Assembly (NCBI GenBank): GCA_002684655.1
Contig: NYVR01000076.1
Location: 104 to 64,103 of the forward strand
From: Planctomycetota bacterium
GTDB lineage: Bacteria; Planctomycetota; UBA1135; UBA2386
Reading direction: 5' to 3'
DNA: 64,000 nucleotides
In this document: piece after piece, positions 1,268 to 59,055 of the stretch
Layout: the number at the start of each line of letters is the position of its first letter
Position numbering within the stretch: position 1 is the stretch's first letter
Made by a program: the position numbers and the translations under genes
The notes under the pieces: generated by a model
Told to the model about the DNA's origin: nothing
The model's input: the letters and a program-made list of their open reading frames with translations, nothing else
The model's database searches: none

Positions 1268-2539
1268 TCAGCGCGGCGGCGTGTCCCGATGAAGGTCGGC
1301 GAAGTCTAGGTAGTGCTCCCAGTCGGCGGGCGTCAGGTCGTGCTTGCCGGTGCGGACGTGGTAGCCGATTCGGCCGTGGGCCGGTTGGTCGAGCGCGGGC
1401 ATCTCCTCGGCGGGGAGGCCGTCGCCGCAGACGAGCCGGTAGACCGCGTCGGCGCCGCGCGCGGACAGGAACTCGCCAAGCGGGTCGGCCCAGCTGTCGA
1501 ACTGTGCGCTGGCCACGTAGACCGGCCGCGGGGCGCACAGCGCGAGCAGCAGGTGTTGGTCAACGGGCAGCGCGTCCTCGCGGCCGCCGTAGCTGCGGAA
1601 CCTCTTGCAGAACCAGTGCGGGAAGTTCTTGTTGATGACGGCGACGGTCTCGCCTTGCTTGCGTCGCGAGTAGGCCGCGCCGCCACATCCCGAGTTGTTC
1701 GAGATGATCATCCAAAAGCGTTGGTCCTGCGCGCCCGCCCAGAGCGCGGTTTTGCCGAGCCGCGAGTGGCCGAGGACCGCGGCGCGGGTCGCGTCGAAGT
1801 CCGCGTCTGCTTCGAGCGAGTCGAGGATCCTCGACAGCCCCCAGGCCCAGGCGCCGATCGCGCCCCAGGATTCGTCTCGTCGTTCGCCGTCGCCGTCGAA
1901 TGCGCCGTGGACGCCGTTGTCGAAGCCGTCGTCGAAGTCCGGGTCGAGGTCCCCGTAACAAGCGGTCACCAGCCCGTAGCCGCGACCGATGATCTGCTCG
2001 ACTGGCCAGCGTCCTGCGACGCCGCCTCGGCCCGCCTCGGTCGCGCGGTTGGCGTCGACGCCCAGCGCCTTGTTGTTGCGGACCCAGCAGGTCGCGACGC
2101 GGACGCCAGGGTCTGGGCTAACGGTGTGGTTCCCCTGGAAGTTCAGGGCGACGAACACGGGCGCGGGCCCCTGGCGTGTCTTCGGGAGGTAGGCGAGCAC
2201 CCGGACCGCGGCGTCACGGTCTGCGCCGTAGCGCAGGTCCCATTGCTTTCGCGTCGCGGCGCCGTCCAGCGCGTCCGCAGACGTGATGTGCTCGACGCGC
2301 GCGCGTTTGTCAGCCGGTGTGCGACCGTAGACTTCGGCGCGAAAGAGCTCGAGCACCTCAGGTCGACGCTGGTCGAACCATTGCGACGCGGACGTGACGG
2401 GCGCGCCGTCCTGCATCCGCAGCGGGTGCGGCTCGCAGGTCGGGGCCGCTTGGCCAGAGGTGGCGGCGCTGACGAGAAGCGTCAGGATCGTCGGGGTCGC
2501 GGTCTTCATAGGTGGGGCGCGAACGTATGCTCTACGCAC
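1268..2539 (-). CDS. CE15-type glucuronoyl esterase / acetylxylan-esterase-like alpha/beta hydrolase, secreted
   Basis: It has an N-terminal signal peptide (MKTATPTILTLLVSAATSGQA). The nucleophile-elbow motif LGHSRLGKTALWAGAQDQRF is typical of bacterial CE15. Confidence 0.6.
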   Translation of the reverse strand: MRRAYVRAPPMKTATPTILTLLVSAATSGQAAPTCEPHPLRMQDGAPVTSASQWFDQRRPEVLELFRAEVYGRTPADKRARVEHITSADALDGAATRKQWDLRYGADRDAAVRVLAYLPKTRQGPAPVFVALNFQGNHTVSPDPGVRVATCWVRNNKALGVDANRATEAGRGGVAGRWPVEQIIGRGYGLVTACYGDLDPDFDDGFDNGVHGAFDGDGERRDESWGAIGAWAWGLSRILDSLEADADFDATRAAVLGHSRLGKTALWAGAQDQRFWMIISNNSGCGGAAYSRRKQGETVAVINKNFPHWFCKRFRSYGGREDALPVDQHLLLALCAPRPVYVASAQFDSWADPLGEFLSARGADAVYRLVCGDGLPAEEMPALDQPAHGRIGYHVRTGKHDLTPADWEHYLDFADLHRDTPPR

Positions 2540-2726
2540 GAATGCGTATCCCGGCGGCCGCTGCGGACTTCACCGCGTGCAAGTGCGCCGATTATCGGGT
2601 CGTAACTACGCACAACAGCGCAGGAAGAAAAGGTGCAGGGTCTCTCTATGTAACGATCTTGAAACTGAACGACTGGTTTCGCGTTCCCTATCATCACCAA
2701 CGTCTCGTCGCCCGTCCTTGCCACCC

Positions 2727-4550: not shown

Positions 4551-5519
4551 ATGGAAGTAATCACCCCCGTAGCCTGCTCTCTGGAGCAGGTAGAAGCTCT
4601 CCTGCAAAAGCCGCTGCTCGATCTCGTCTTTGAGGCGGCTGTGGTCCACCGTGAGCACCACGACCCCCGGCGTGTGCAGTGTTCGCAGCTGCTGTCGATC
4701 AAGACCGGCGGCTGCCCGGAGAACTGCGGCTACTGCTCTCAGAGCGCTCACCACAAGACCCCGGTCGATCGAGAGCCGCTGATGGACGTCGACCAGGTCC
4801 TCGCCGCGGCCAAGGCCGCATGCATGAACGGCGCAGAGCGCTTCTGTATGGGTGCAGCGTGGCGTTCGGTCCGCAAAGGCGAGCAGTTTGACCGCGTGCT
4901 GAAGATGATCCGCGGCGTCAAGGATCTCGGCATGGAGGCGTGCGTCACGTTGGGGATGCTCGACGAAGAGCAGGCGCATCAGCTGCGCGAGGCAGGGCTC
5001 GACTACTACAACCACAACCTCGACACGGGACGGTCGCACTACGACAAAGTGGTGACGACGCGTACCTACGATGACCGGCTCGAGACGATCGATAACGTGC
5101 GCAAGGCGGGGATCAACGTCTGCTGCGGCGGGATCCTGGGGCTCGGCGAGAAGCGCCGCGGCCGCGCCGAGCTCCTGCAGGAGCTCGCGAACCTAGACCC
5201 GCAACCAGAGTCCGTCCCGATTAACACGCTGGTTCAGGTCGAGGGCACGCCGATGGACGGGGCCGAGCAGCTCGACTGGACTGAGTTGGTGAGGACCGTC
5301 GCTGCCGCGCGGATCCTGATGCCGCTGACTGCTGTGCGGCTGTCGGCGGGCCGGACCGATCTTGACGAAGCCACGCAGGCGATGTGCTTCCTCGCTGGCG
5401 CGAACTCGATGTTCGTCGGCGACGAACTGCTCACGACTCCAAACCCGGCGCCTTCGACCGACGCGGCGCTGCTTCAAAAGCTCTCGATGAACGCGACGCC
5501 CAAGTGCGGGGGCGCGTAG
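4551..5519 (+). CDS. bioB: Biotin synthase (radical SAM)
   Basis: It carries the [11 protein letters not shown] radical-SAM CxxxCxxC motif. BioB-like sequence runs throughout ([24 protein letters not shown]). It is the first gene of the bio cluster. Confidence 0.9.
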
Positions 5520-5531
5520 GGCGCTTGATCG

Positions 5532-7349
5532 GTGACTGACCCTCGGCTCGATCACGAGCTGGAGCGATCGCTAGAGGCGCGCGCGCGGCGCGGGCTTAGG
5601 CGTGAGACGAAGCTCGACGGAGTCGTCCCTGGCGTCGACTTCGGCAGCAACGATTACCTCGGGCTCTCTCGAGACGGCGCGATCGCGTCCGCGCTCACCG
5701 CAGCCGCTGCGCATGGCGTCGGCGGTCGGTCGGCCCGCTTACTCGCGGGTGGATCGATCCTCCACGAAGAGTCCGAGCGCGCCTTCGCGCAGTGGCTCGG
5801 GTCAGAAGCTGCGCTGCTGTTCCCGTCCGGTTACCAAGCGAACATCGGGCTCGTCGGAGCCCTGGCCGGGCGCGGCGACGTGATTCTGTCGGACCGTGAC
5901 AACCACGCCTCGTTGATCGACGGCGCGAGGCTGTCGCGCGCGCGCGTAATCATTCACGACCACTGCGACCTCGGCGACCTGGAGCGCGCCCTCAAGTCGG
6001 CCGCGGGCGCCCGTCGTAAGTTGGTGCTGACCGAGGGCGTCTTCAGCATGCGCGGAGACCTCGCCCCGCTCGCGGAGATCGACCGGCTCTGTCGTCGTTA
6101 TGACGCGTGGCTGGTCGTGGACGAGGCGCACGCTGCAGGTCTGCTCGGCCCAGGCGGCGCCGGCGCGTGGGCCGCTGCAGGCATCGAAGGTGAGCACCGG
6201 CTGTGCGCCCGGCTGGTGACGTGCGGGAAGTCGCTGGGTGTCGCCGGCGCGTTCGTCGCGGGCAGCGACGTCCTACGTCGGCACCTCATCCACGCGGCGC
6301 GGTCGTTCCTGTTCACGACGGCCCCGCCGCCGCCTATCGCCGGCGCGCTGCTGGCTGCGGTCGAGCGGTGCCAAGCCGCTGACGATTTGCGGGCCGCGGC
6401 GCTGGGTAACGCGCGCCTGCTCGCCTCGTCGCTGGGTCTCCCCGAGCCCGCCGCGGCGATCGTGCCGTTTCCGGTGGGCGACAGCAGCGAAGCTGTAAGG
6501 CTCGCGAGCACGCTGCGCGATGCAGGCTTCTACGCGCCGGCCGTGCGACCGCCGACAGTGCCCGTCGAGTCAGCGGGTCTGCGGCTCGTCTGTCGCGCGG
6601 ACCAGACTTCAGCGCAGGTCGAGCAGCTGTCGGCCTTGTTGCGCGAGGCGCGATCGTCCGCGGTCCCTGCGCCCGCTCGTGCTCCTGCACAAGCCGAGGT
6701 CATGTGCGTCGCAGGCACCGACACGGACGTCGGCAAGACCGTGGTCAGCGCGCTGCTGATGCGCGCGGCGCAGCGCCTCGGGCACGCTCGATACTGGAAG
6801 CCGATCCAGACTGGTGACGATGATGACACGGCGACGGTCCAGGCTCTCAGCGGCGCGCCGGCGGACTCGCTGCTCTCGAACCACGCGTGGTTTCCGCTGC
6901 CGGCATCGCCCCACGAGGCCGCTGCGGCCGTCGGGCAACGCGTCGACCTCGGCGCGTTGGAGCGCGATTACAAGCGCCACCGCGCCGCCGCCGCCGACCT
7001 TCTGGTGGTCGAGTTCGCTGGCGGCCTCCACGTGCCGATTGACCTCGACCCTGCAGTCCTGCAGCTCGACTGGCTCACGCGCATGGACGCAGAGGTCGTG
7101 CTGGTGGCGCGCTCTGGCCTGGGGACGCTCAACCACACCCTGCTGTCCGTCGAGTCGCTGCGCGCGCGCGGTCTCAGCGTTCGCGCGCTGTTCCTGGTCG
7201 GCCCTCCGCATGCGAGCAACTTCCGGACGTTGCAGGCGCTGACAGGGGTCGCGCGCTGTTACGAGGTGCCGACCTTCAAGGACCTCTCGCCTGCCGCCCT
7301 CGACGATTGGCTCGACCGATATGACCTCGCGGATCTCCTGCATGTCTGA
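5532..7349 (+). CDS. bioF-bioD: Fused 8-amino-7-oxononanoate synthase (BioF, aa 1-~385) and dethiobiotin synthetase (BioD, aa ~391-605)
   Basis: The BioF part has GSNDYLGL, DEAHA and the PLP-lysine context TCGKSLG. The BioD part has the P-loop GTDTDVGKT, plus KPIQTG and VVEFAGGL. It is one uninterrupted reading frame. Confidence 0.8.
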   Translation: MTDPRLDHELERSLEARARRGLRRETKLDGVVPGVDFGSNDYLGLSRDGAIASALTAAAAHGVGGRSARLLAGGSILHEESERAFAQWLGSEAALLFPSGYQANIGLVGALAGRGDVILSDRDNHASLIDGARLSRARVIIHDHCDLGDLERALKSAAGARRKLVLTEGVFSMRGDLAPLAEIDRLCRRYDAWLVVDEAHAAGLLGPGGAGAWAAAGIEGEHRLCARLVTCGKSLGVAGAFVAGSDVLRRHLIHAARSFLFTTAPPPPIAGALLAAVERCQAADDLRAAALGNARLLASSLGLPEPAAAIVPFPVGDSSEAVRLASTLRDAGFYAPAVRPPTVPVESAGLRLVCRADQTSAQVEQLSALLREARSSAVPAPARAPAQAEVMCVAGTDTDVGKTVVSALLMRAAQRLGHARYWKPIQTGDDDDTATVQALSGAPADSLLSNHAWFPLPASPHEAAAAVGQRVDLGALERDYKRHRAAAADLLVVEFAGGLHVPIDLDPAVLQLDWLTRMDAEVVLVARSGLGTLNHTLLSVESLRARGLSVRALFLVGPPHASNFRTLQALTGVARCYEVPTFKDLSPAALDDWLDRYDLADLLHV

Positions 7350-8607
7350 CCTACCCAAGCGCGACACGCGCGTAACGTGGCACCCGTACACGCAGCACGG
7401 CGTCGAGGCGTCGCCGCTCCCAGTCGTTGGCGCGCGCGGCGCGTGGCTGGAGCTCGCGGACGGGCGCAAGCTGCTCGACGCGATCTCGTCTTGGTGGGCG
7501 ACGCTGCACGGGCACTCCGAGCCGACGCTCGTCGAGGCCATGCACGAGCAGGCCGCGCGCCTCGATCACGTGCTCTTCGCGGGTGCGACGCATGAGCCCG
7601 CCGTGCAGCTCGCCGAGGGGCTGCTCGAAGTCGTCCCCAAAGGGCTGTCGCGGGTGTTCTACTCCGACGACGGTTCCACGGCTGTCGAGGCTGGGATGAA
7701 GATGGTGCTGCAGTCCTGGGTGCACCGTCGCGAACCTGAACGGCGCGTCTTCGTCGCGCTGGAGGGGGCGTATCACGGCGACACCTTCGGCGCGATGGCC
7801 GCTGGTGATCCGGACCCTTTCTTCACCGCCTTCGCGCCGCTGATGTTCGAGGTTCGCAGGGTGCCTGCCGACGCTGGCGCGCTCGCGGACGCGCTCGACG
7901 AACTCGGCGGCCGCGCGGCGGGCTTCCTGCTCGAGCCTTTGCTGCAAGGCGCGGCCGGAATGAAGGTCATGTCCGAGGACTTCGTCCGCGATGCGCGCGC
8001 CCTGTGTACGGATCACGGCGTGCCGATGATCGCTGACGAGGTTATGACTGGCTTTGGCCGCACCGGCGCGTTGTTCGCCTGTGGTCGCGCTGGCATCACC
8101 CCGGACGTGCTCTGCCTCGCCAAGGGCCTCAGCGGCGGCATGCTGCCGCTCGCAGCGACCGTCGCGACCGAGGAGTTGTTTGAGTGCTTCTTGCACCACG
8201 AACGCTCCAGGTTTTTCCCGCACGGTCACACCTTCACCGCGAACCCGGTCGCGTGCGCGGTGGGCGTAGCGTCTTTGGAGCTGACGCTGCAGCGGGACGT
8301 CCCCGCGCGGCTCGAGATGATCGGCGCGCGCATTTACGACGAGTTACGTCCGCTAGAGGCGGACCCTCGCGTCCGCGATGTCCGACACCTAGGAGGCATG
8401 GCAGCGCTGGACCTCGTCGTGCCCGACGGCGACGCCGGCTATCTCTCTAGCCGCGCCCCGGAGATCCGCCGCGCGGCGGTCGAGAAGGGCGTGCTGCTGC
8501 GTCCGCTCGGGGACGTGCTGTACGCCCTGCCGCCCGCGTGCACCTCAGACGACGAGGCCGGTCGAATCGGGCAGACGATGTGCGCGCTCGTTGACGAGCT
8601 CTGCTAA
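7342..8607 (+). CDS. bioA: Adenosylmethionine-8-amino-7-oxononanoate aminotransferase
   Basis: Class-III aminotransferase motifs are present (WHPYTQ, SSWWATLHGH, IADEVMTGFGRTG, LAKGLSGG). The ATG at 7342 overlaps the bioF-bioD stop. An alternative ATG lies at 7321. Confidence 0.85.
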   Translation: MSDLPKRDTRVTWHPYTQHGVEASPLPVVGARGAWLELADGRKLLDAISSWWATLHGHSEPTLVEAMHEQAARLDHVLFAGATHEPAVQLAEGLLEVVPKGLSRVFYSDDGSTAVEAGMKMVLQSWVHRREPERRVFVALEGAYHGDTFGAMAAGDPDPFFTAFAPLMFEVRRVPADAGALADALDELGGRAAGFLLEPLLQGAAGMKVMSEDFVRDARALCTDHGVPMIADEVMTGFGRTGALFACGRAGITPDVLCLAKGLSGGMLPLAATVATEELFECFLHHERSRFFPHGHTFTANPVACAVGVASLELTLQRDVPARLEMIGARIYDELRPLEADPRVRDVRHLGGMAALDLVVPDGDAGYLSSRAPEIRRAAVEKGVLLRPLGDVLYALPPACTSDDEAGRIGQTMCALVDELC

Positions 8608-8669: not shown

Positions 8670-10169
8670 GTGAGCATGCGCCTAACGGACCTCTTCCTCG
8701 ATGCTGTGACGCGGCACTTTGAGCGCGTCGCGGTCGAGGTGCCGCCGGGTGAGGGGCGTCCAGAGCTGCAGCAGGTCTCTTACGGCGAGTTGGCGAGCAT
8801 GGCAGATCGCGTCCGCAGCGAGTGCGCTGCCTACGTGACGTCTGAGGTGCTGGTCGTGGTGATGTTGCCACGCGAGACAGCCTGGCTGTATGCCGCGCAG
8901 ATCGGCGTGATGTGGGCGGGCGCAGGCTATGTCTGCCTTGACGAGAGCTTCCCTGACGCGCACATCCTGCACGTTGTAGAGGACGCGTCAGCGGTCTGCG
9001 TCGTGACGGACCGGTCTCGTCGCTGTCGATTCGAAGGTGTCAATGTACCGATCGTCACGGTCGGCGACGACGGCCCACTCCCGTCCACGAGACCCGGTTC
9101 GTATACGCCTCCTCCTGAGTGGTGCACAGAGCGGAGCCTCGCCTACGCCATTTACACGTCGGGGACGACGGGGAAGCCCAAGGCCGTGTTGGTCGAGCAC
9201 CGCGGCGTTGTCAACCTGATCACGTCCGGCGTCGCGCGCTTCTCGGTCGGTGTCGAGGACCGGATGTCGCAGAACAGCTCGCCTGCATACGACTCGTCTC
9301 TGGAGGAGATCTGGTTAGCGCTGGCTGCGGGGGCGACCTTGGTGGTGATGGATGACGCCACGGTCCGCTCTGGACCAGACCTAGTCGCGTGGTTGCGTCG
9401 TGAGCGAGTGACGATCCTCTGCCCTCCGCCGACGCTGTTGCGAACCATGGGGTGCACATCACCCGCCGACGCCTTGCCAGAGCTCAGGATGTGCTACGTC
9501 GGCGGGGAAGCGCTGTCCGACGACCTCGCCGAGGTCTGGGGTGGTGCGCTCAGACTAGAGAACGGCTACGGACCGACGGAGTGCACGGTGACGGTCGTAC
9601 GCGGGCAGGTGCACCCAAATGAACCGGTGACCATTGGATCGCCGGTGCCTCCTCACGTCGCGCACGTCCTCGACGAGTCCTTGCAGCCCGTCGCGCCCGG
9701 TGAGGCGGGTGAGTTGTGCATCGCTGGGCCGGGTTTGGCGCGCGGATATCTCGGCAAACCTGACCTGACCGCGGAGCGCTTCCCCACCTTGCCAGGAATG
9801 GGGCGCGTGTATCGAACGGGCGACCTCGTCTCGGTCGATGCGCGTGGTCTGCTGCACTACCACGGCCGTATCGATGCGCAGGTGAAGGTGCGTGGCTACC
9901 GGATCGAGCTAGAGGCGATCGAGTCGGTGCTCGCGCGTTGTCCTGCGGTGCGCGAGGTCGCGGTCGTCGCGCAGGGTGAAGAGCCGGCCCGGTTCTTAGT
10001 CGCGCACGTAGCGCTGATCGACCCGTCGGCTCCACCGGATATCGCGGCGCTGCAGTCAGCCGTCGCGCATGAGCTGCCCAAGTACATGGTGCCGGCGCGG
10101 TTCGCGTGGATCGATCACTTGCCGCGCGCGGTCAGCGGCAAGGTGGCCCGTAAAATGCTCCCGGCCGTC
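8670..10169 (+). other. Adenylation domain of the Pls-type synthetase (aa 1-~500)
   Basis: Core motifs A3-A10 were read in order. The hand-derived specificity residues are D208 S209 E212 T255 Y276 G278 G299 V307 T308 K491. Confidence 0.75.
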
Positions 10170-12590
10170 GAGGTGGAGGATGTCGCTGAGACATACGCAG
10201 ACGACGGGTCGACCCTGTCGATCGTGCGCCGCGCGTTCGGGGAGGTCCTGGGCCTGCCGAGCAGTCAGCTCGCAGACGACGACGACTTTTTCGCCGTGGG
10301 CGGGAACTCCCTCCGCGCCGCAATGGTGGTGTCGAAGCTTCGTGGCCACCCCGAGCTTGAAAGCGTCGCTGTCCGCGACGTCTACCGCAGCCCAACGGTG
10401 AGCGGTCTGCTGAAGACCGCTGGCGCTCGCGCCGAGCTTGTTGGCCAGCGCGAGGTCGACGCGGCGGAGCACGGCTCCTCTAAGGGCAACCTAGTGTGGT
10501 TCACGTCGGTTCAGGTCGCCTACTTGTCCGTCGGGTTCGCGCTCGGCGCCGTCGTGGTCTGGGCGATGGTTGAGTATGTCCTGTACTGGTTCCTGACGTT
10601 CTCGCTGTCGACGCTGCTGTTCCTGCTGCCGTGGTTGATGACGGCGCTCTACGTTGCGTGGACGATCGTCACCACGACGACGGCGGTGTGTTTGAAGCGC
10701 GTCCTCATCGGCCGCTACTCGCCGGGCCGCACGCCGGCGTGGGGGCGAACCCGGCTCCGTCACTGGTTGGCGATCCGCGCGGCGCGGCTGATCCCCTGGG
10801 ATCTCGTCGAGGGGACCGAGCTCCAGGCGGTCATGCTGCGATTGCTCGGCGCCAAGGTTGGCAAGCGGGTGCACTTTCACCGGGGCGCAGCGTTGCACGT
10901 CGCTGGCTGGGACCTGCTGGAGATCGGCGACGACGTGACCCTCGGGCGAGACGTCGAGCTGGGGCTTTGCGAATTAGATGACGGTGACTTCGTCGTGGGC
11001 TCCGTCCGCATTGGTCACGGCGCGACGCTGGAGACGCGGTCCAGCGTTGGCCCCGACACTGTCATCGGAGACGGCGCGGTGCTGCGCCCGCTCAGTTTTG
11101 TTCCTGCTGGCGCGCGCGTCGCGCCAGGCGACGTCGTCGACGGCGTACCGGCGACGCCGACGGAGCCGCGCCCGTCGCCAGCGCCGTCGGCTCGGGCCCC
11201 TGGTCCGTCGCGCGCTTATCCATGGATCGTGATCACGTACCGGCTGTGCGCCGGCCCGCTCATGTGGATGCCCTGGGCGCTCTTGCTCTGGGTGCTCGCC
11301 GCGTGGGCTGGGATCGACAGCGACGTGATCCGCAACTGGCTCTTGGTGGACGGGCCGTCGTCCAGGCCCGTATTCTTCCTCGGGCTCGTTGGGCTGGCGG
11401 TAGCGGGTGTGCTGGCTACGCAGCTGCAGACAGCGCTGATGTTGCGCGCCCTGCCTAAAACACGCGCCGGGTCGTTTGGACGATGGACGCTCCGTTATTG
11501 GTGGGCCAGCGTTCGGATGAGCTGGCTGGAAGGCGCCGGCTCTTGGCTCTCTGGGACGTGGTTCTGGCCGCGGTGGCTGCGCCTCGCCGGCATGCGCGTC
11601 GCCGATGACGTCGAGGTCAGTTCGATCCACGACGTCCTCCCTGAGCGGACGTCGCTCGGAGGGCGTTCGTTTCTGGCCGACGGTATCTACCTGGGCGTCC
11701 CGCACGTGCACCGAGGCTGGGTCACGGTCGGAGACACTGCTCTCGGCGACGGGACGTTCTTGGGCAATCACGTGGTGATCGAGCAAGGGCAGCAACTCCC
11801 CGATGACTTGCTCCTCGGCGTCAGCACGGTCTCTGACGATCAGACGATGACGGCGGGCTCATCCTGGTTCGGCCTGCCGGCGTTTCGGTTGCCACAGCGC
11901 GAGATCGTCAAAGTCGATGAACGGCTGACCTACAAGCCAGGCGCGCTCCGCTTCGCCAACCGAATCTTTTGGGAGTCGTCTCGTTTCCTGTTGCCGATCT
12001 TGCCTGCTGCCATGGCGCTGTGGTGGTTTGATGCGTTCGTCGCCTACGGCTTCCTCGGGTCGGTCTGCGCGACCGCTGTGATCACCGTTTCGTTGCCGTT
12101 GATCGTCTTGCTCGCCAAGTGGGCGCTCCTAGGTCGCGTGCGGCCGGGCCAGCACGGCCTTTGGTCTAGCTGGGCGAGTCGGTGGGACTTCCACTACGTA
12201 ATGTGGCAGTTCTACGGCGGCGGGCTCTTGAGCGCGCTGGAGGGGACCTTGATCCTGCCTTGGTATCTACGAGCGATGGGTATGCGGATCGGCAAGCGGT
12301 GCGTGCTCGGCGACGGATTCGCGCAGGTCGTTGACCCGGATATGATCACGATCGAAGACGGCGCGACGGTGCACGCGCTATTTCAGGCGCACAGCTTCGA
12401 AGATCGGGTCCTCAAGATCGATTATGTCCGTCTGCGTGCGCGCTGCACGGTAGGTCGCGGCGCGGTCGTGCTCTACGGGGCTGACGTAGGTGAAGATTCG
12501 CACGTGATGCCCAACAGCGTGATCATGAAGCGGGAGCGCCTGCTGCCGCGGAGGCGATACGCAGGCGCGCCGACCGATTTGGTCTCGTAG
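8670..12590 (+). CDS. Pls-type single-module membrane NRPS: A domain, PCP, then three units of two TM helices plus a hexapeptide-repeat acyltransferase-like domain; putative homopoly(amino acid) synthetase
   Basis: A-domain cores: LAYAIYTSGTTGKPK, NGYGPTECT, GELCIAGPGLARGY, YRTGDLV, GRIDAQVKVRGYRIELEAIE, LPKYMVP, SGKVARK. The PCP has FFAVGGNSLRA. Three hydrophobic helix pairs alternate with three left-handed-beta-helix-like segments. No condensation or thioesterase domain is seen. Start is the GTG at 8670 or the ATG at 8676. Confidence 0.8.
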   Translation: MSMRLTDLFLDAVTRHFERVAVEVPPGEGRPELQQVSYGELASMADRVRSECAAYVTSEVLVVVMLPRETAWLYAAQIGVMWAGAGYVCLDESFPDAHILHVVEDASAVCVVTDRSRRCRFEGVNVPIVTVGDDGPLPSTRPGSYTPPPEWCTERSLAYAIYTSGTTGKPKAVLVEHRGVVNLITSGVARFSVGVEDRMSQNSSPAYDSSLEEIWLALAAGATLVVMDDATVRSGPDLVAWLRRERVTILCPPPTLLRTMGCTSPADALPELRMCYVGGEALSDDLAEVWGGALRLENGYGPTECTVTVVRGQVHPNEPVTIGSPVPPHVAHVLDESLQPVAPGEAGELCIAGPGLARGYLGKPDLTAERFPTLPGMGRVYRTGDLVSVDARGLLHYHGRIDAQVKVRGYRIELEAIESVLARCPAVREVAVVAQGEEPARFLVAHVALIDPSAPPDIAALQSAVAHELPKYMVPARFAWIDHLPRAVSGKVARKMLPAVEVEDVAETYADDGSTLSIVRRAFGEVLGLPSSQLADDDDFFAVGGNSLRAAMVVSKLRGHPELESVAVRDVYRSPTVSGLLKTAGARAELVGQREVDAAEHGSSKGNLVWFTSVQVAYLSVGFALGAVVVWAMVEYVLYWFLTFSLSTLLFLLPWLMTALYVAWTIVTTTTAVCLKRVLIGRYSPGRTPAWGRTRLRHWLAIRAARLIPWDLVEGTELQAVMLRLLGAKVGKRVHFHRGAALHVAGWDLLEIGDDVTLGRDVELGLCELDDGDFVVGSVRIGHGATLETRSSVGPDTVIGDGAVLRPLSFVPAGARVAPGDVVDGVPATPTEPRPSPAPSARAPGPSRAYPWIVITYRLCAGPLMWMPWALLLWVLAAWAGIDSDVIRNWLLVDGPSSRPVFFLGLVGLAVAGVLATQLQTALMLRALPKTRAGSFGRWTLRYWWASVRMSWLEGAGSWLSGTWFWPRWLRLAGMRVADDVEVSSIHDVLPERTSLGGRSFLADGIYLGVPHVHRGWVTVGDTALGDGTFLGNHVVIEQGQQLPDDLLLGVSTVSDDQTMTAGSSWFGLPAFRLPQREIVKVDERLTYKPGALRFANRIFWESSRFLLPILPAAMALWWFDAFVAYGFLGSVCATAVITVSLPLIVLLAKWALLGRVRPGQHGLWSSWASRWDFHYVMWQFYGGGLLSALEGTLILPWYLRAMGMRIGKRCVLGDGFAQVVDPDMITIEDGATVHALFQAHSFEDRVLKIDYVRLRARCTVGRGAVVLYGADVGEDSHVMPNSVIMKRERLLPRRRYAGAPTDLVS
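10212..10424 (+). other. Peptidyl carrier (thiolation) domain; the phosphopantetheine Ser547 codon is at 10308-10310
   Basis: The DDFFAVGGNSLRAAMVV motif is present. Confidence 0.7.
10485..12587 (+). other. Membrane region with three tandem soluble C-terminal domains (approx. aa 700-830, 940-1075 and 1160-1295) separated by TM helix pairs (approx. aa 608-680, 850-925 and 1100-1155)
   Basis: Hydrophobic stretches include VWFTSVQVAYLSVGFALGAVVVWAMV..., YPWIVITYRLCAGPLMWMPWALLLWVLAAWAG and FLLPILPAAMALWWFDAFVAYGFLGSVCATAVITVSLPLIVLLAKWALLG. Repeated motifs of the type G(M)R(I/V)G..V... IGD..T(L/V)G occur in each soluble segment. Confidence 0.65.
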
Positions 12591-12804
12591 TTCGAGCGGC
12601 GAGGCTGAGCTTGGAAGCGCCGTCGCGCCGAGCGCGCCCGCTCAACTGCAGCGCCGGTTGGGGACCAGCCGCGCCACGAAGATTCCCAGCAGCGCCCCTC
12701 CGGGGAGCGCGAGGGGAACCCCGAAGCGGCTCTGGAGCAGCCATCCTACGGTCGTCATTAGGGCCGCGACCGCGACCCGCCTTGGGGAGTTGAGCGCTCA
12801 GAGC

Positions 12805-13260
12805 ATGTCGTTTTGCCGGTGTATTGTCCGCGGCCGCGATTTGTTGCAGGGGGTTCGACGCATCCCGGCGCCTGCCTGGACGAATCGCTTCGGCGTGGTC
12901 GTTCGCAGCAAGATATGCGCCCGATGCGGTCGTTCCTTTGACTGGCGCAAGAAGTGGGAGGCGTGCTGGGACGAGGTGCGCTTCTGTAGCCAAAAGTGCC
13001 GCCGCAGCAGGCCTTCGGAGCTCGACGCCCGTCTAGAGCATGCCATCAGCACGCTGCTCGAGCGTCGCGCCGCCGGCGGCACGATCTGTCCGTCTGAGGC
13101 GGCGCGCGCCGTCGCAGACGATTGGCGTCCGTTGCTCGAGCGAACGCGTATGGCGGCCCGTCGGCTCGCGGCCCAAGGCGAGGTAGAGATCACGCAGGGC
13201 GGCCGTGTCGTTGACCCGGACACCGCGCGGGGCGCGGTCCGGATCCGACGCCGTCGATGA
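12805..13260 (+). CDS. DUF2256-like zinc-ribbon fused to a DUF3253-like domain
   Basis: The zinc-ribbon reads CARCGRSFDWRKKWEACWDEVRFCSQKCR. It is followed by ICPSEAARAV...WRPLLERTRMAARRLAAQGEVEITQGGRVVDP. The start is uncertain; the ATG at 12805 was chosen. Confidence 0.55.
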   Translation: MSFCRCIVRGRDLLQGVRRIPAPAWTNRFGVVVRSKICARCGRSFDWRKKWEACWDEVRFCSQKCRRSRPSELDARLEHAISTLLERRAAGGTICPSEAARAVADDWRPLLERTRMAARRLAAQGEVEITQGGRVVDPDTARGAVRIRRRR

Positions 13261-13272
13261 ATATGCGGCCGC

Positions 13273-13680
13273 TCAGGTCGCCCAGTGGAACGTGATCGGC
13301 GCGTCGATGTCCGGGTGCAAGCTCTTGTGCACCGGGCACGTGTGCGCGGCGCGCTCGAGGATCAGCTTCTCTTTGTCGCTGTAGGTGCCTTCGACCGTTA
13401 CGTCGACGGGCAAGCGTCCGATGCGTCGAGGCTCCGCGTTCATGTGCTTTCCGGCCGTCGCGCGGACCCCCTTCAGGTCGATTCCGCGCCGCTTCGCGAC
13501 GATGCCGAGCGTCGTCAGGATGCACGTCGCCACCGCAGTCGCGACGAGATCGGTGGGCGAGAAGTAGCGGCCCATGCCCATGTTGTCCTTGGGTGCGTCC
13601 GTTTGAATCGTGTGCTGGGACGGTTCGTGCACCGCGGTGCAGCAGAGATCGCCTTCATAGGTGGCTTGGATCGTGACCAT
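13273..13680 (-). CDS. OsmC/Ohr family protein
   Basis: The size is 135 aa. Typical OsmC sequence is present (FSPTDLVATAVATCILTTL...ERAAHTCPVHKSL). Confidence 0.75.
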   Translation of the reverse strand: MVTIQATYEGDLCCTAVHEPSQHTIQTDAPKDNMGMGRYFSPTDLVATAVATCILTTLGIVAKRRGIDLKGVRATAGKHMNAEPRRIGRLPVDVTVEGTYSDKEKLILERAAHTCPVHKSLHPDIDAPITFHWAT

Positions 13681-13698
13681 GCCAGCAGCGTAGCGGCC

Positions 13699-14574
13699 TC
13701 AGGGCTTCTTGGTCAGCAGTTCGTAGGCGCGTTGGATCGCGCGGAAGCGCTCGGTGGCCTCGCGTTGCGCGGCGTCGCCGAGGTTCGGCTGGGCGTCTGG
13801 GTGAAACTTCCGGACCAGTTCGCGGTGTCGCCGTCGGATCTGCGAGGCCGTCGCCTGCGCCGGCAAGCCGAGGACGGCGAGGGCGTCGACGCGGGCGTTG
13901 GCCGGGCGAGCGTCCTCGCGTTCACCGCGGCCGTGTCGCTGTCCGGAAAGAAACTGCGCGCGCGCGAGATGAAAGAGCATGCGCGCCCTGGGTTGCGGGA
14001 TGCCGAGCCCTTTCGCCACGTCGTGCAGGGCCGCGTGTTCGTCGGGGCGGAATTTCCCGTCGATGAACGTGACCATCGCGCACCAGCAGAACAAGGTGTC
14101 GAGCTCCGGTTCGTCCAGGCTGACGGCGATACGCGCTGCGAGCCCGACGCGGTCGTCGACCATGAGCGGCTGCCTCTCCCACGCCCTGATCTCGTGGTCG
14201 CTGACCGGGAATCGCGGCAGCAAGAACGTGCGCACGAGGTCCCGCTCACCCTGGCTGATCGGTCCATCGGACTGCGCGACGGCGAACAACAGATAGTAGA
14301 TGCGGCGCGGCAGCGACGCGCGTTGCCACGCTTGACGGGCAGCATCGCCCCACTCTTTGCGGGTCCGGTCGCGGTAGCTGAAGAGGCGCGTGATGGGGCC
14401 GATCGCCGTGAGCGCGATGTAGAACCCGACGAAGCCCAGCGCCATGGTCGCGAGGCCGAGCGGGTCCTTCAGCGGCACTATGCGGGGCACGACCCGGAGA
14501 CCTGCGGCCGCGAGAATGATGACGCCGAGCGTGAATCGGCCGAGCCAGAACTGCAGAGAAGAACGATCAGCCAT
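13699..14574 (-). CDS. DjlA-like membrane co-chaperone (two TM helices, TerB-like middle, C-terminal J domain)
   Basis: The C-terminal J domain contains HPD (ALAVLGLPAQATASQIRRRHRELVRKFHPD...AYELL). N-terminal hydrophobic helices are present. Confidence 0.7.
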   Translation of the reverse strand: MADRSSLQFWLGRFTLGVIILAAAGLRVVPRIVPLKDPLGLATMALGFVGFYIALTAIGPITRLFSYRDRTRKEWGDAARQAWQRASLPRRIYYLLFAVAQSDGPISQGERDLVRTFLLPRFPVSDHEIRAWERQPLMVDDRVGLAARIAVSLDEPELDTLFCWCAMVTFIDGKFRPDEHAALHDVAKGLGIPQPRARMLFHLARAQFLSGQRHGRGEREDARPANARVDALAVLGLPAQATASQIRRRHRELVRKFHPDAQPNLGDAAQREATERFRAIQRAYELLTKKP

Positions 14575-14633
14575 TGCCGACGGGTTCGAACGCTACGCAA
14601 TCGTCGGCGCCGGCGCGATCCCCGGTCGCTGAG

Positions 14634-15521
14634 TCACGCACGTTGCGCGAAGAAGACGCTGCCGACCACCAAGGCGATGCCGGCGAGGCTCCACGTCCCG
14701 GGTATCTGCCCGAACAACAGCGCGCCGAAGGCCATCGCGAACGCGATCTGTAAGTAGCCGACGGAGATCGCCTTGCCTGCGCGCTCTCGCGCGAGCCCCT
14801 TGGTGAGGGCCAACTGTGCCACCTGCGTCGCTGCGCCCACGCCCAGCAGCAGCAGCCAGCCCTGCAGATCGGGCGGGACCCATTCGGCGATCGCGAATGG
14901 CAGGCTGACAGGCACCGAGATCGCCGGGAAGTAGAAGACGACCAGGATCGGCGGCTCGGTCTCGCCGAGCTTTCGGACAGAGACATAGGCGAACGACGCG
15001 AGCAGCGCGCCTGCGACGCCGACGGCGACGTAGGTCCAGGAGATGCCCGTCGCCGCGGCGTCGCCGCCGAATAAGGCCGCTGGCTGCGCGATCAGGATCA
15101 CCCCTGCGAACGCGAGCGCCATGCCCAGCAGCACGCGGCGCTCGAGACGTTCGCCCAGCCACAGCGAGGCGACGACCGCAGTCAGGACAGGGCTGATGTG
15201 GTGGATGACGGTTGCTTCGGCGAGCGGCAGGTGAATGACGGCCGCGTAGAAGCAGATGAATCCGCCAGAGCCGAAGACGCCGCGGAGGACGAGCAGGCGG
15301 TTATTCTCGCCCCAGGGCGGCTGCTTGGCGCGGACGAGGCCGACGGTGCTCAACGCCAGCGTGACGACGGCGCGCGCCAGTACGATCTGCATGGTAGGCA
15401 GGCCGCGTTCGGCCGCGAGCTTGACCAGCAGGGCCATCACCGCGAACCAGAACGCAGCTTGGACCATGTAGCCGATCCCTCCGCTACGGTGTTCTGCAGG
15501 CGAACGCCCGGGGTTGTTCAA
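14634..15521 (-). CDS. EamA/DMT-family permease
   Basis: It has about 10 hydrophobic helices in two repeated halves. The sequence style is typical of EamA. Confidence 0.7.
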   Translation of the reverse strand: MNNPGRSPAEHRSGGIGYMVQAAFWFAVMALLVKLAAERGLPTMQIVLARAVVTLALSTVGLVRAKQPPWGENNRLLVLRGVFGSGGFICFYAAVIHLPLAEATVIHHISPVLTAVVASLWLGERLERRVLLGMALAFAGVILIAQPAALFGGDAAATGISWTYVAVGVAGALLASFAYVSVRKLGETEPPILVVFYFPAISVPVSLPFAIAEWVPPDLQGWLLLLGVGAATQVAQLALTKGLARERAGKAISVGYLQIAFAMAFGALLFGQIPGTWSLAGIALVVGSVFFAQRA

Positions 15522-17836: not shown

Positions 17837-17912
17837 GGGGACGTAGCTCAATTGGTAGAGTCCCGGACTGTCTATCCGGTGGTTGCGGGTTCGATCCCCG
17901 TCGTCCTCGCCA
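17837..17912 (+). tRNA. tRNA, apparent anticodon GUC (Asp), 76 nt with encoded CCA
   Basis: The cloverleaf was folded by hand. The acceptor stem pairs GGGGACG with CGTCCTC. The D arm is GCTC-AATTGGTA-GAGT. The anticodon stem pairs CCGGA with TCCGG around the loop CTGTCTA. The T arm is GCGGG-TTCGATC-CCCGT, with discriminator G73 and CCA. Confidence 0.8.
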
Positions 17913-58300: not shown

Positions 58301-59055
58301 CGGGCGGTCCGCGGCGTCGACCGCGCGACGGCGAGACGCTCTACGGCGAAGGCCGCCTCGACGGCGTGATCGTAGACGGCGTCACGGAGGTCTCGGGTCT
58401 CGTCGTCACGGTCCCGCTCGCAGGGTCGATCACGGGGATCGTCACGGACGGATCCAACATGCCCGTCGCGAACGCCGAGATCGCCTACGTAGACAACAAC
58501 CGCGAGCGCCGTCGTCGCAGCGGTAACCCCCTCATCGACATGCTCGGCGCGTCCCGTCCGGTCCGGACGGGTGAGGACGGTCGGTTTGAGATTAAGGGGC
58601 TCACGCCCGGCGAATACACGCTACGCGTCGAGAGCGAGGCGCTGGAGGCAGGCAAGCTCGACGACGTCGTCGTGCAGCAGGAGCTGCCCACAGAGGTGCA
58701 GCTGCGCGTTGTGCGTGGCGCGACCTTGCGCGTGCGCGCGACGAACGTCGATAAGCAACAGATCCCGCTGGGCAACATCACCTTGCTCGACGGCAAGGGC
58801 AAGCCAGTGGTCAGCGGGCTCTCGACGTTCACGATCATGAGGCGGCTGATGTCGCGGCGTGACAAGGTGGAGAACTCGGGTTGGTATGAGTTCGGCAGCG
58901 TGCCGCCAGACACCTACACCGCGGTCCTCAGGGAGAAGGGCAAGGAGGACATCCGCATCGTGCGTACCATCCGCGACGGTGAGAAGGTCGAGTGGGACAT
59001 CGACGTCGGCCTCGAGTTGGAAGCCCGCGGTCGCGCGCGACAAGGCGGCAAGTAA
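55345..59055 (+). CDS. Giant secreted protein with about 11 carboxypeptidase-regulatory-like domains
   Basis: It has an N-terminal signal/anchor. A ~90-aa unit recurs with the pattern (V/L)xGxVxDxxGxPVxGAxV...TDxxGRFE(I/L)xG(L/I)xPGxYxL. Confidence 0.65.
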   Translation: MQQRPAVFIVLTLLLAVAAVYGLLGLGGASAPSAPATITDEAASGDALPSRGALPASTGQSDAVTLERAAAGGLTATTGVRGVVVDAKSGQPLGGVEVIAVKDQPSFAPVVDRFRGLFQDGMFVDTRATRRELGRTVSNPDGSFEILGVAPGRLFLDGRSDGWFVRTPASARIARGEVVEGVELRASPGGRLRGIVIGADGAPSPGASVNVRPGLNAFLGQITERQYRWLDTVTDDQGRFDIPGVPAGEGYTVSVTAPSVALEEVHGVSVRAGEVTALTVQAHQGAIVEGRVLDPDGEPVGGASVAMVYLDLSRVLFSADGRSEPLVTDADGRFRLEHVAAGRVAMVAAADDVAPSNIAELAVVDGGVYDDVLLQLGVGEAVAGVVVDDRDQPVAGAEVEVRPFERPNDPQFLKMMLKVRRVATTTDATGRFEVRGMTGERLVIQASKRGYTTAVASGVELDDPEIVVRVQRGVTIRGRVVVADGDEQKPVARFRVDTRSREVPKNEDGEVVAVGEESGRRRWRGRGRGGPPWEQGRRKRTQQMPEGMTMANRTGDGNWREVKSDAGRFELTGIPPGRIRLRVRADGFLSPDSQTIDLQPGGVSDELLFVCGGGESVVGRVVDTSGAPVSDAQVTAYKEDRGDGRRSGLRAMFKVDPEDFDFLALSTSQRTALSDSKGQFTVAALSPGDYRFTARHPDLAKASTKDVAIQAGVDTPPVEIVIDAGGAVEGTVTGLGMRPLTNALMVAFSLQAGSMRSGTTDQRGYYKIDGLPPGQYVVFKSRLDERADNIPLDLMSNMRLKTVTVRRGKTARLDVHDEGEDGVRIYGTVRENGEPVPRALISLLGSDREGLLGMGIRANAADMNGRYELIGIKPGDYVMQVTRFQGQPVQTTFEIEVPEDVRDYPFEVQLPTSTLRGVVLDSRGEPVEGIRVTLGSEDSGLSDQGGLVGMIAQNGLSQARTDERGAFEMKSISAGTYRLTAGAKGPGGPRRRPRDGETLYGEGRLDGVIVDGVTEVSGLVVTVPLAGSITGIVTDGSNMPVANAEIAYVDNNRERRRRSGNPLIDMLGASRPVRTGEDGRFEIKGLTPGEYTLRVESEALEAGKLDDVVVQQELPTEVQLRVVRGATLRVRATNVDKQQIPLGNITLLDGKGKPVVSGLSTFTIMRRLMSRRDKVENSGWYEFGSVPPDTYTAVLREKGKEDIRIVRTIRDGEKVEWDIDVGLELEARGRARQGGK

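Follow-up and report, generated by a model that had tools for sequence, protein, structure and literature searches.

A planctomycete single-module NRPS-like enzyme of the Pls/PosA type, a candidate cationic polymer synthetase

PosA of Acinetobacter baumannii (delta-poly-L-ornithine) and Pls of Streptomyces albulus (epsilon-poly-L-lysine) are cationic homo-poly(amino acid) (CHPA) synthetases. In both, an adenylation (A) and a carrier (T) domain, with no condensation (C) or thioesterase (TE) domain, precede six membrane helices in three pairs and three beta-helix units that are predicted to form a pseudo-trimer. CHPA synthetases conserve Asp and Glu at positions 1 and 3 of the specificity code as a pair that binds cations (PMC10522769). 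Two proteins with the same A-T-terminal domain architecture and a different code are OFZ39577.1 (Bdellovibrionales bacterium) and WP_072382105.1 (Novosphingobium sp.) (PMC10522769). Patel and Gulick (2023) found that a Bdellovibrionales A domain with that code activated L-arginine modestly and, unlike Pls and PosA, rejected Lys and Orn, as well as Dab and Dap; the authors suggested that its real substrate may be a larger analogue (PMC10522769).

We analyzed a 64,000-nucleotide stretch of DNA from a Planctomycetota bacterium (the window) that encodes an enzyme resembling PosA and Pls in domain order, in its three helix pairs and beta-helix units, and in the Asp and Glu at code positions 1 and 3. 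We give about an even chance to the explanation that we prefer: a functional inner-membrane-anchored, single-module NRPS-like CHPA (Pls/PosA-type) synthetase of an orphan clade with the code DSECYGGVTK, acting by the mechanism proposed below.

The synthetase gene and its adenylation and carrier domains

We found that the synthetase gene is intact and that its A domain is under purifying selection. The ORF (8670-12590, + strand) encodes 1306 aa from a GTG at 8670 in a single uninterrupted frame, with no frameshifts or internal stops. The true start is probably the ATG at 8676, giving 1304 aa, because the N-terminus M-[R/T]-L-T-D-L-F is conserved in the two closest orthologs (L001 and L003). dN/dS was about 0.14 against an ortholog with 78% identity, and 0.14-0.25 in both halves of the gene against three orthologs. 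A frameshifted or inactive A domain, marking a pseudogene, would have refuted the earlier note; the sequence shows neither. We found no evidence of decay, and a decaying or inactive gene is effectively ruled out by the intact frame, the catalytic motifs and carrier serine, the dN/dS of 0.14 and the retention of family-invariant residues.

Pfam identified AMP-binding (aa 13-361, E 2e-63), AMP-binding_C (aa 417-491), PP-binding (aa 519-581) and Hexapep in the ORF, and no Condensation or Thioesterase domain even at E<=0.1. The domain order is A, T, and then three copies of a unit made of two transmembrane helices and a left-handed beta-helix (LbH). The A domain (aa 13-491; 8706-10142, + strand; PF00501, E 2e-63; PF13193) scored 352.9 bits on TIGR01733, above the NCBIfam cut-off of 317.4. 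Its core motifs were intact (A3 YTSGTTGKPK, A5 NGYGPTE, A7 YRTGD, A8 GRIDAQVKVRGYR, A10 PRAVSGK). Pfam, NCBIfam and the core motifs thus agreed with the earlier description of a complete A domain and a carrier without C or TE. The carrier domain (aa 519-581; 10224-10412, + strand; PF00550, E 2.9e-9) contains the predicted phosphopantetheine-attachment residue Ser547 in GGNSL (10308-10310, + strand), which is invariant in relatives; G544, G545, S547 and L548 were invariant in 16 of them.

We read the specificity code by alignment to the GrsA-PheA pocket segment. The substrate-pocket stretch (9291-9593, + strand) supplied D208, S209, E212, C251, Y276, G278, G299, V307 and T308, and K491 (10140-10142, + strand) is the tenth position, giving D-S-E-C-Y-G-G-V-T-K. 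The extraction was validated on a Dab-cluster enzyme as positive control, which read D-F-E.... Besides the window synthetase, 63 of 80 related loci encode DSECYGGVT. The full window code is the one given for OFZ39577.1 and WP_072382105.1 (PMC10522769), which come from other phyla. What links the window enzyme to the assayed homolog is this 10-residue code, and by this analogy its probable substrate is arginine or another cationic amino acid like it. The proposed substrate of adenylation is an alpha-amino acid whose side chain is long and cationic; Asp208 would hold its alpha-amine and Glu212 the positive charge of the side chain. L-arginine has the best support, and a related cationic analogue may be used instead.

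A known polymer (epsilon-poly-L-lysine, delta-poly-L-ornithine, poly-Dab or poly-Dap) would fit the shared architecture and the Asp and Glu that all CHPA synthetases have in the first and third code positions. However, such a product is unlikely, because the same-code homolog activated L-arginine modestly and was no more active with any of the four diamino acids (PMC10522769). Code position 2, which determines chain length, is Ser in the window enzyme, versus Ala (Lys), Met (Orn) or Phe (Dap/Dab), the last as in the DFE... control; Gly replaces Thr304 of PosA. In addition, no Dab, Dap or Lys supply genes were found near the synthetase. The adjoining aminotransferase is BioA (475 bits on TIGR00508, cut-off 405); the L082 cluster, by contrast, has a DABA transaminase and an aspartate kinase. 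We see little prospect for any of these four polymers.

Family position and the membrane-embedded C-terminal domain

In an end-to-end, collinear alignment of about 1,300 aa, the synthetase shared 31-32% identity with three Pls/PosA enzymes named by PGAP, in keeping with the earlier assignment of the A-T-(TM2-LbH)x3 layout to the Pls/PosA type. Identity to PGAP-named family members was about 25-32%. Between the C-terminal domains of the clade and those of the named enzymes it was 25-29%, and the clade forms a deep branch. An anticipated match to TIGR02353 was present (aa 633-1301 against model positions 19-694 of 695, E 2.2e-103), but at 346.9 bits it fell below the curated trusted cut-off (NCBI) of 423.1 bits. 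Five other clade members tested were also under the cut-off (clade range 347-377 bits), versus 550-629 bits for named Pls/PosA proteins. Because the window enzyme and these five members fall short of the cut-off, functional divergence of the clade from Pls/PosA is possible.

Relatives numbered more than 555, from at least eight phyla and including cultured actinomycetes; cultured carriers are Kutzneria, Lentzea, Amycolatopsis and Streptomyces sp. NBC_00060. The synthetase sits in a distinct clade that is widespread and biochemically orphan and has DSECYGGVTK as its defining code. The literature already knows this clade: its exact code is printed and a same-code A domain was assayed (PMC10522769). 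In the papers that we examined, we found no report of a product for any clade member; the putative product is a homopolymer.

Hydropathy delineated hydrophobic segments in three pairs, in accord with the six helices expected. They belong to three repeat units, each delimited by hydropathy, internal BLASTP and an AlphaFold2 (AF2) model. Unit 1 (10467-11216, + strand), also marked by a Hexapep match at aa 779-810, comprises TM1 (10491-10592), TM2 (10605-10706) and beta-helix 1 (10917-11162). Unit 2 (11217-11942, + strand) comprises TM3 (11217-11306), TM4 (11367-11450) and beta-helix 2 (11649-11870), and unit 3 (11943-12587, + strand) comprises TM5 (~11979-12044), TM6 (~12051-12125) and beta-helix 3 (12345-12584). 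In a positive-inside check, K/R-rich stretches follow each TM pair (6, 5 and 3 K/R), as expected if every soluble part lies on the cytoplasmic side.

The three units matched one another in BLASTP (E 6e-5 to 3e-3, 23-26% identity). The AF2 model of aa 575-1306 (pLDDT 92, pTM 0.90) gave each repeat the order long helices, strand, two helices, beta-helix, in agreement with the published PosA model. In repeat 3, both hydrophobic segments lie inside one 45-residue helical stretch of the model, which does not separate TM5 from TM6; that boundary was placed by hydropathy alone. The threefold repeat described earlier was upheld by BLASTP and AF2, but not its soluble-domain size of ~130 aa: the soluble units are about 150-170 aa and the beta-helices within them about 75-85 aa.

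The best PDB fold matches of the C-terminal model were trimeric hexapeptide acyltransferases. Each window beta-helix superposed on such LbH enzymes (maltose and galactoside O-acetyltransferases, serine acetyltransferase) with a target TM-score of about 0.5-0.59, and sequence matches were weak. A conserved His is likewise present, in a family-wide Q-x-H-x-x-E-D-R motif found by family alignment in repeat unit 3 (aa 1239-1246; 12384-12407, + strand). Q1239, H1241, E1244, D1245 and R1246 are among 67 residues that do not vary between the clade and three named Pls/PosA proteins, and the window synthetase keeps every one of them. In contrast to the LbH acyltransferases, the window enzyme has three non-identical beta-helices in one membrane-anchored chain, and its acyl donor would be a carrier-protein thioester, not acyl-CoA.

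In the mechanism that we infer, which extends to loading, iterative transfer, linkage type and export, the aminoacyl group would be loaded as a thioester onto the Ser547 phosphopantetheine. The C-terminal domain, with its three left-handed beta-helices as a pseudo-trimer on six membrane helices, would pass it to the amine of a free acceptor, first a monomer and then the growing oligomer. Iterative transfer would end in release of a short polycationic peptide.

Partner genes and alternative products

Because guanidino groups are poorly nucleophilic in isopeptide polymerization, a polymer of arginine would have to be alpha-linked or use another acceptor. The lack of a good second nucleophile in arginine is also consistent with an aminoacyl-transferase that passes the T-bound cationic amino acid once to a non-self acceptor. 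This acceptor might be an envelope glycan, a lipid head group or a polyamine, and the enzyme would then act in the manner of Dlt or MprF-type charge modification and not of Pls. The deep branching of the clade and its scores below the TIGR02353 cut-off point the same way, as does a partner domain. Among 75 judgeable loci, 17 encode a synthetase with a fused multi-pass domain of the HGSNAT_cat/DUF418/Acyl_transf_3-like kind, and 4 further loci encode this domain in the next gene (fused or adjacent, 21/75). The HGSNAT-like family is associated with trans-membrane acyl transfer. However, on Rhodococcus pLRE138 such a partner comes after a bona fide Pls/PosA gene as well, and is therefore no marker of different chemistry. 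Moreover, the window and about one third of the loci lack such a partner, and the 67 family-wide invariant residues are kept. We consider single transfer unlikely.

The second partner is a small BurB-like SET-domain gene (PF00856). In about 41 of 76 judgeable loci it directly precedes the synthetase on the same strand, and its end lies no more than about 16 nt from where the synthetase starts; coupled loci include 21 of 22 from actinomycetes and the 69%-identical L002. This translational coupling of a SET gene to a thiotemplate enzyme recalls BurB and BurA of the Burkholderia bur pathway, a SET-domain Met S-methyltransferase and a sulfonium-loading A domain. BurB converts free L-Met into the sulfonium amino acid SMM by methylation (PMC12542666), and the sulfonium acid derived in that pathway is loaded by an A domain whose pocket holds an acidic residue (PMC7496086). 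The monomer might thus be a non-proteinogenic "onium" or N-methylated cationic amino acid, such as S-methyl-L-methionine, supplied by the SET methyltransferase; in the window's organism this gene would sit elsewhere in the genome.

A profile of 25 SET partners matched BurB (PDB 9l4t; E 1.3e-19, 73 bits) better than the best histone methyltransferase (2.4e-12, 50 bits). The clade also shares with BurA an acidic pocket residue for a cationic substrate, keeping Asp and Glu, with Gly and Thr in place of the hydrogen-bonding Thr and Ser of PosA. The "modest" L-Arg activity of the assayed homolog (PMC10522769) suggests, by analogy, a point against arginine itself.

In contrast, the A domain of BurA lacks the alpha-amine-binding Asp that the clade keeps, and the alpha-amine is the sole nucleophile of SMM. 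The SET partners differ from BurB at several active-site-proximal positions: they keep the canonical N-H-S-C motif and have a near-invariant Trp at BurB Ser88 and an 11-residue insertion, so that their substrate may differ from that of BurB. No SET gene was found within the 64-kb window or beside the synthetases of L001 and L003, although all three share one code. Optional tailoring therefore fits better than obligatory monomer supply, and we regard an onium monomer as quite unlikely.

Host and gene neighborhood

The window shares synteny with a MAG from the Planctomycetota (BioA 88%, synthetase 78%, PilT-like 84%), and the three closest synthetase orthologs are all planctomycete. The host thus belongs to the planctomycetes and not to the myxobacteria; the "Myxococcota-like" context of the earlier note does not hold. 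Its statement that no polymer hydrolase adjoins the synthetase does, as we found none there.

NCBIfam profiles identified a biotin operon upstream (4551-8607, + strand), with bioB (4551-5519; TIGR00433, 394 bits), a bioF-bioD fusion (5532-7349; TIGR00858 and TIGR00347) and bioA (7321-8607). The synthetase follows on the same strand after 62-68 nt (about 13 nt in L001), and might as end gene of a bioB-bioFD-bioA operon be functionally tied to biotin metabolism. The order is kept in the window, L001 and L003, but in these only (3/81 loci), a single planctomycete lineage; elsewhere the upstream neighbor is a SET gene or an unrelated gene. With no apparent chemical rationale for it, we consider a biotin link highly improbable. 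Downstream lies a DUF2256+DUF3253 gene (12658-13260, + strand; Pfam), which had no counterpart in L001-L004 and is possibly co-transcribed with the synthetase.

Domain organisation and integrity of the synthetase

The synthetase is encoded by a single ORF of 1306 aa from a GTG (8670..12590, + strand). The N-terminus of the two nearest orthologs reads M-[R/T]-L-T-D-L-F, and the true start is therefore probably the ATG at 8676, two codons inside the GTG ORF. Pfam searches matched AMP-binding (aa 13-361), AMP-binding_C (417-491), PP-binding (519-581) and Hexapep, and no condensation (PF00668) or thioesterase (PF00975) domain was detected in the protein at E<=0.1. Adenylation (A) and carrier (T) domains without condensation or thioesterase domains are a feature of synthetases that make cationic homo-poly(amino acids) (CHPAs) (PMC8506220, PMC10522769). 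The amino-acid adenylation domain passed the NCBIfam threshold and has the complete set of A-domain core motifs. The carrier serine, Ser547 (GGNSL), did not vary among relatives.

Kyte-Doolittle hydropathy identified three pairs of hydrophobic segments, giving six predicted transmembrane (TM) helices. An AlphaFold2 (AF2) model of aa 575-1306, built from a 61-sequence alignment (pLDDT 92, pTM 0.90), placed long helices at these positions, with TM5 and TM6 not separated. Each TM pair is followed by a K/R-rich stretch (6, 5 and 3 K/R, with 0-1 acidic residues), and the loops between paired helices are either short or acidic. This positive-inside pattern is consistent with all soluble parts lying on the cytoplasmic side, together with the A and T domains.

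We found that the three soluble units (C1-C3) are similar to one another (pairwise BLASTP E 6e-5 to 3e-3). In the model, each repeat runs from long helices through a strand and two helices to a beta-helix, the same order of elements as in the published model of PosA, the delta-poly-L-ornithine synthetase. Foldseek matched single repeats alone, to trimeric hexapeptide (LbH) acyltransferases, and neither sequence nor fold searches found a solved polymerisation domain in the PDB. The repeat BLASTP, Hexapep and AF2/Foldseek results together give the three-unit, left-handed beta-helix arrangement of CHPA synthetases. An earlier note on this DNA had read an A-T-(TM2-C)x3 layout from the sequence and expected six helices. 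The layout is borne out by the Pfam A and T domains, the three hydropathy pairs and the three beta-helix repeats of the model; the helix number follows from the hydropathy pairs, with which the model and the positive-inside pattern agree apart from TM5/TM6.

The gene is intact and under purifying constraint. There were no stops or frameshifts in the ORF, and dN/dS was 0.14, 0.25 and 0.23 against orthologs that are 78%, 69% and 70% identical, with similar values for the A-T part and the membrane part. Sixty-seven residues are invariant across three named (PGAP-named) Pls/PosA enzymes and members of the DSECYGGVTK clade, an orphan branch of homologs named after its A-domain specificity code. All 67 are present here, including the motif Q1239-x-H1241-x-x-E-D-R in repeat 3. 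The intact ORF, the low dN/dS and the retained residues refute the idea of a dead gene, to which we give hardly any chance; a pseudogene was one of the findings that, according to the earlier note, would overturn its reading.

Placement in the family and in the genome

We found that the synthetase is related to, and distinct from, the characterised Pls/PosA enzymes (epsilon-poly-L-lysine and delta-poly-L-ornithine synthetases). It aligned collinearly over ~1,300 aa, at 31-32% identity, with three proteins named 'Pls/PosA family non-ribosomal peptide synthetase' by PGAP. The anticipated match to TIGR02353 (NRPS_term_dom) was present, with aa 633-1301 covering model positions 19-694/695 (E 2.2e-103), yet the score of 346.9 bits was below the NCBI curated cut-off of 423.1. 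On sequence comparison, homology to TIGR02353 is certain, and we do not grant equivalog status. Five further members of the clade, drawn from four phyla, scored 354-377 bits, compared to 550-629 bits for the three named Pls/PosA proteins, so the shortfall is systematic across the clade members tested. In accord with these low scores, the clade member L081:6907-10926, which is plasmid-borne in Streptomyces, carries no annotation beyond 'amino acid adenylation domain-containing protein'. We presume that antiSMASH-style mining would probably label the window's gene as a NAPAA (non-alpha poly-amino-acid) cluster.

One homolog search used the C-terminal 707 aa as query. A scan of species-representative genomes gave more than 555 relatives, and a search through all of 1.84 billion cluster representatives gave 405 at E<=1e-30. 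The best-scoring ~55-70 of these 405 (clusters at 50% identity) fall in the DSECYGGVTK clade, which is set off from the rest by a gap in bit score from ~380 to ~270 among full-length matches. The synthetase is 45-78% identical to clade members and 25-32% identical to the named Pls/PosA proteins; for the C-terminal domains, identity was 45-66% inside the clade and 25-29% to these outgroups. By these comparisons, the clade forms a coherent group that branches deeply as sister to the characterised enzymes, and it is large and of broad phylogenetic spread. With the full protein as query, the A-T half matched LgrA in the PDB with E 3e-123, compared to E 1e-52 for the A domain of Pls (7wew). Because LgrA-type NRPS modules match far better than 7wew, the A-T part of the clade would seem to lack specific kinship to that of Pls.

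The gene context had been described as Myxococcota-like, and this label is wrong. The three best relatives, at loci from other genomes, are all in Planctomycetota MAGs (L001, 78%; L003, 70%; L002, 69%), and the window shares synteny with L001 (BioA 88%, PilT-like ATPase 84%, DUF5916 protein 80%).

Upstream of the synthetase on the + strand, equivalog models identified a biotin operon of bioB, a bioF-bioD fusion and bioA. The fusion (605 aa, 5532-7349, +) joins BioF (8-amino-7-oxononanoate synthase) to BioD (dethiobiotin synthase), and the L003 fusion is 71% identical to it. The order of bio operon and synthetase recurs in L001 and L003 alone; we therefore treat the adjacency as lineage-specific synteny, and a biotin-linked role for the synthetase is highly improbable. 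The class-III aminotransferase upstream was considered as a supplier of diaminobutyrate (Dab) or ornithine and ruled out, as it scores above the equivalog threshold for BioA and belongs to the bioB-bioFD-bioA operon.

Downstream on the same strand is a DUF2256/DUF3253 gene that is not conserved, and beyond it are convergent OsmC-like, TerB-DnaJ and EamA genes on the opposite strand. The EamA transporter gene lies 2 kb downstream, and the syntenic L001 lacks a counterpart of it. A 490-aa ORF (13285-14757, +) was rejected as an accessory gene; it is low in complexity, has no Pfam or PDB match and is an antisense artefact of the real OsmC-like (13273-13680, -) and TerB+DnaJ (13699-14574, -) genes. 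Likewise, the ORF at 1313-2605 (+) is an antisense artefact of high-GC DNA, opposite a glucuronyl-esterase-like gene (1268-2539, -).

No other secondary-metabolism-like genes were seen within the 64-kb window. A promoter and terminator scan gave 0 promoters, and terminators were no commoner than in shuffled sequence. The sole RNA gene found with Rfam was a tRNA-Asp (GTC) (17837-17912, +), which abuts the start of an opposite-strand DUF6687 gene. A 1236-aa protein (55345-59055, +) contains at least 7 CarboxypepD_reg (transthyretin-like) repeats and is flanked by large surface or secreted proteins (LVIVD repeats; DUF1028+TIG). Such proteins are typical planctomycete content.

Substrate pocket

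We extracted the specificity code by aligning the pocket segment to that of GrsA-PheA, using a reference segment that gives the known DAWTIAAIC code. The code in the window is D208 S209 E212 C251 Y276 G278 G299 V307 T308 K491. D208 and E212 put Asp and Glu at code positions 1 and 3, where in CHPA synthetases these residues bind the alpha-amine and the side-chain cation (PMC10522769). The nine-residue code DSECYGGVT was common to 64/81 sequences examined, including that of the window, and the others differ at 1-4 positions. The positive control came from a plasmid of Streptomyces sp. NBC_01527 (L082:1859-8578), where genes for a DABA transaminase and an aspartate kinase come after a Pls/PosA gene in what seems to be a poly-diaminobutyrate cluster complete in itself. 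This Pls/PosA gene has the code DFECLSAVT (D-F-E...), and Phe at code position 2 is the signature given to diaminopropionate (Dap) and Dab enzymes (PMC10522769).

Enzymes of this kind are known, and the precise subtype has already been noted and partly assayed (PMC10522769). The same 10-letter code was printed, with the substrate marked unknown, for OFZ39577.1 (Bdellovibrionales) and a Novosphingobium protein (Patel & Gulick, PMC10522769). The expressed Bdellovibrionales A domain was no more active with the four diamino acids known as substrates and was modestly activated with L-arginine, and the authors raised the idea that a larger analogue fit for polymerisation might be the true substrate (PMC10522769). 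Our tblastn comparison to the codon-optimised Bdello_A DNA, an OCR text with indels, gave fragmented ~35% alignments with in-frame stops and no reliable identity value. The published assay of an A domain with the same code disfavours a diamino-acid substrate; it is the one biochemical datum on the clade, from its sole assayed member, which prefers arginine, and it points away from every known monomer. The conserved pocket of the clade fits no known monomer. The candidate with the strongest support is arginine or another long cationic amino acid like it. A known polymer (of Lys, Orn, Dab or Dap) is therefore a quite improbable product, given a code identical to that of a domain without raised diamino-acid activity. 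Our literature search for later work on the clade, its code string or a SET/Pls association found nothing beyond PMC10522769.

We hold with moderate confidence that the synthetase uses a Pls-like mechanism. The A domain would adenylate a cationic alpha-amino acid, most probably arginine, and the aminoacyl group would be loaded as a thioester on Ser547. The membrane-anchored beta-helix pseudo-trimer would then pass it repeatedly to the amine of a free acceptor, producing a short polycation. The main weak point of this mechanism is a chemical one. Because arginine lacks a good second nucleophile, the linkage might be alpha, or the monomer might be another, or the acceptor might not be the monomer.

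Recurrent partner genes and candidate products

We found that a small SET-domain gene frequently precedes the synthetase gene at related loci. A gene for a SET protein (PF00856) of 160-200 aa, on the same strand and ending no more than ~16 nt from the synthetase start, was present at ~41/76 loci with enough upstream sequence to judge (L002, L005-L009, L018, L020, L024, L028, L033, L034, L038, L039, L041, L042, L044-L047, L050, L052, L055, L056, L058, L060-L062, L064-L066, L068, L070, L072, L073, L075 and L078). The coupling spans five phyla, with 21/22 actinomycetes, 3/3 Verrucomicrobiota, 12/29 planctomycetes and 2/14 Acidobacteriota, and the SET ORF ends at ~9900-9990 in most loci. An apparent 'SET_other' class was an artefact of stop-to-stop coordinates, as gene positions showed. 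Judged from its position, the SET gene is coupled in translation to the synthetase gene that follows it. The 64-kb window, by contrast, contained no SET gene at any point.

A profile of 25 SET proteins matched BurB (PDB 9l4t) with E 1.3e-19; the best histone methyltransferase, a histone lysine methyltransferase, was 7 orders of magnitude behind (2.4e-12). BurB is a small bacterial SET enzyme that S-methylates L-methionine in its free form, giving S-methylmethionine, a sulfonium amino acid (PMC12542666), and in the native bur pathway an A domain devoted to this task, with an acidic residue in its pocket, loads the derived sulfonium acid (PMC7496086). The relationship to BurB and the tight gene coupling might indicate that the monomer is a SET-derived onium or methylated amino acid, e.g., S-methylmethionine, and the pocket, which holds an acidic pair without the hydrogen-bonding side chains of PosA, is compatible with this. 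However, the code is identical with or without a SET gene, which fits optional tailoring better, and the partner SET family differs from BurB near the active site. We consider a SET-derived monomer unlikely.

The second recurrent partner is a multi-pass membrane domain resembling HGSNAT_cat/DUF418/Acyl_transf_3, found at 21/75 judgeable loci. It is fused at the synthetase C-terminus (~aa 1320-1700) in 17 (L005-L013, L015, L025, L026, L033, L036, L042, L055 and L071) and is the next gene in 4 (L002, L003, L004 and L078). Planctomycetes account for 18 of the 21 carriers, including L002 and L003. By tblastn, the window contained no match to this clade feature. These fusions, together with the deep divergence of the clade, could point to an aminoacyl-transferase that makes a single transfer onto an envelope or other acceptor. 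Against this, a gene of the same kind (L084:6030-7265) follows a true, PGAP-named Pls/PosA gene on the Rhodococcus erythropolis plasmid pLRE138, and the HGSNAT-like domain is thus a family-wide accessory. A single-transfer enzyme is doubtful, if somewhat less so than an onium-specific one; these two are the serious alternatives to the Pls-like mechanism. On pLRE138, a BPL-N-domain gene precedes the HGSNAT-domain gene.

Approximately 1/3 of judgeable loci have neither a SET nor an HGSNAT-like gene. The window is among these, and its copy is a plain stand-alone version without accessory genes. No neighbour families other than SET and HGSNAT recurred across phyla at the related loci. In the literature searched, we found no report of an association of either SET or HGSNAT genes with the synthetase.

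Pls-type enzymes make epsilon-polylysine, a food preservative, and other antimicrobial polycations. To our knowledge, all characterised members polymerise a diamino acid. We tentatively suggest, as a possibility well short of the Pls-like mechanism itself, that the clade makes an undescribed natural polycation, for example a poly- or oligo-arginine-type peptide or an onium polymer (S-methylmethionine via the BurB-like SET protein). Such a monomer lacks a second amine, so the pseudo-trimer would need to make alpha-peptide bonds or use other non-isopeptide chemistry. If so, the Pls paradigm would reach past diamino acids, and the product could be a new class of natural polycation. Knowing the product would tell whether the chemistry of single-module, membrane-embedded polymerases also covers cationic amino acids other than diamino acids, and the recurrent couplings to BurB-like SET and HGSNAT genes are concrete experimental handles. 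The planctomycete of the window is not itself tractable, but several carriers of the clade are cultured actinomycetes, which makes the question open to experiment. The plasmid-borne Streptomyces clade member L081:6907-10926 (46% identical, same code) lies on a 220-kb linear plasmid of Streptomyces sp. NBC_00060, a cultured, tractable carrier, and on three near-identical plasmids (H2-H4), where it adjoins a run of hypothetical genes.
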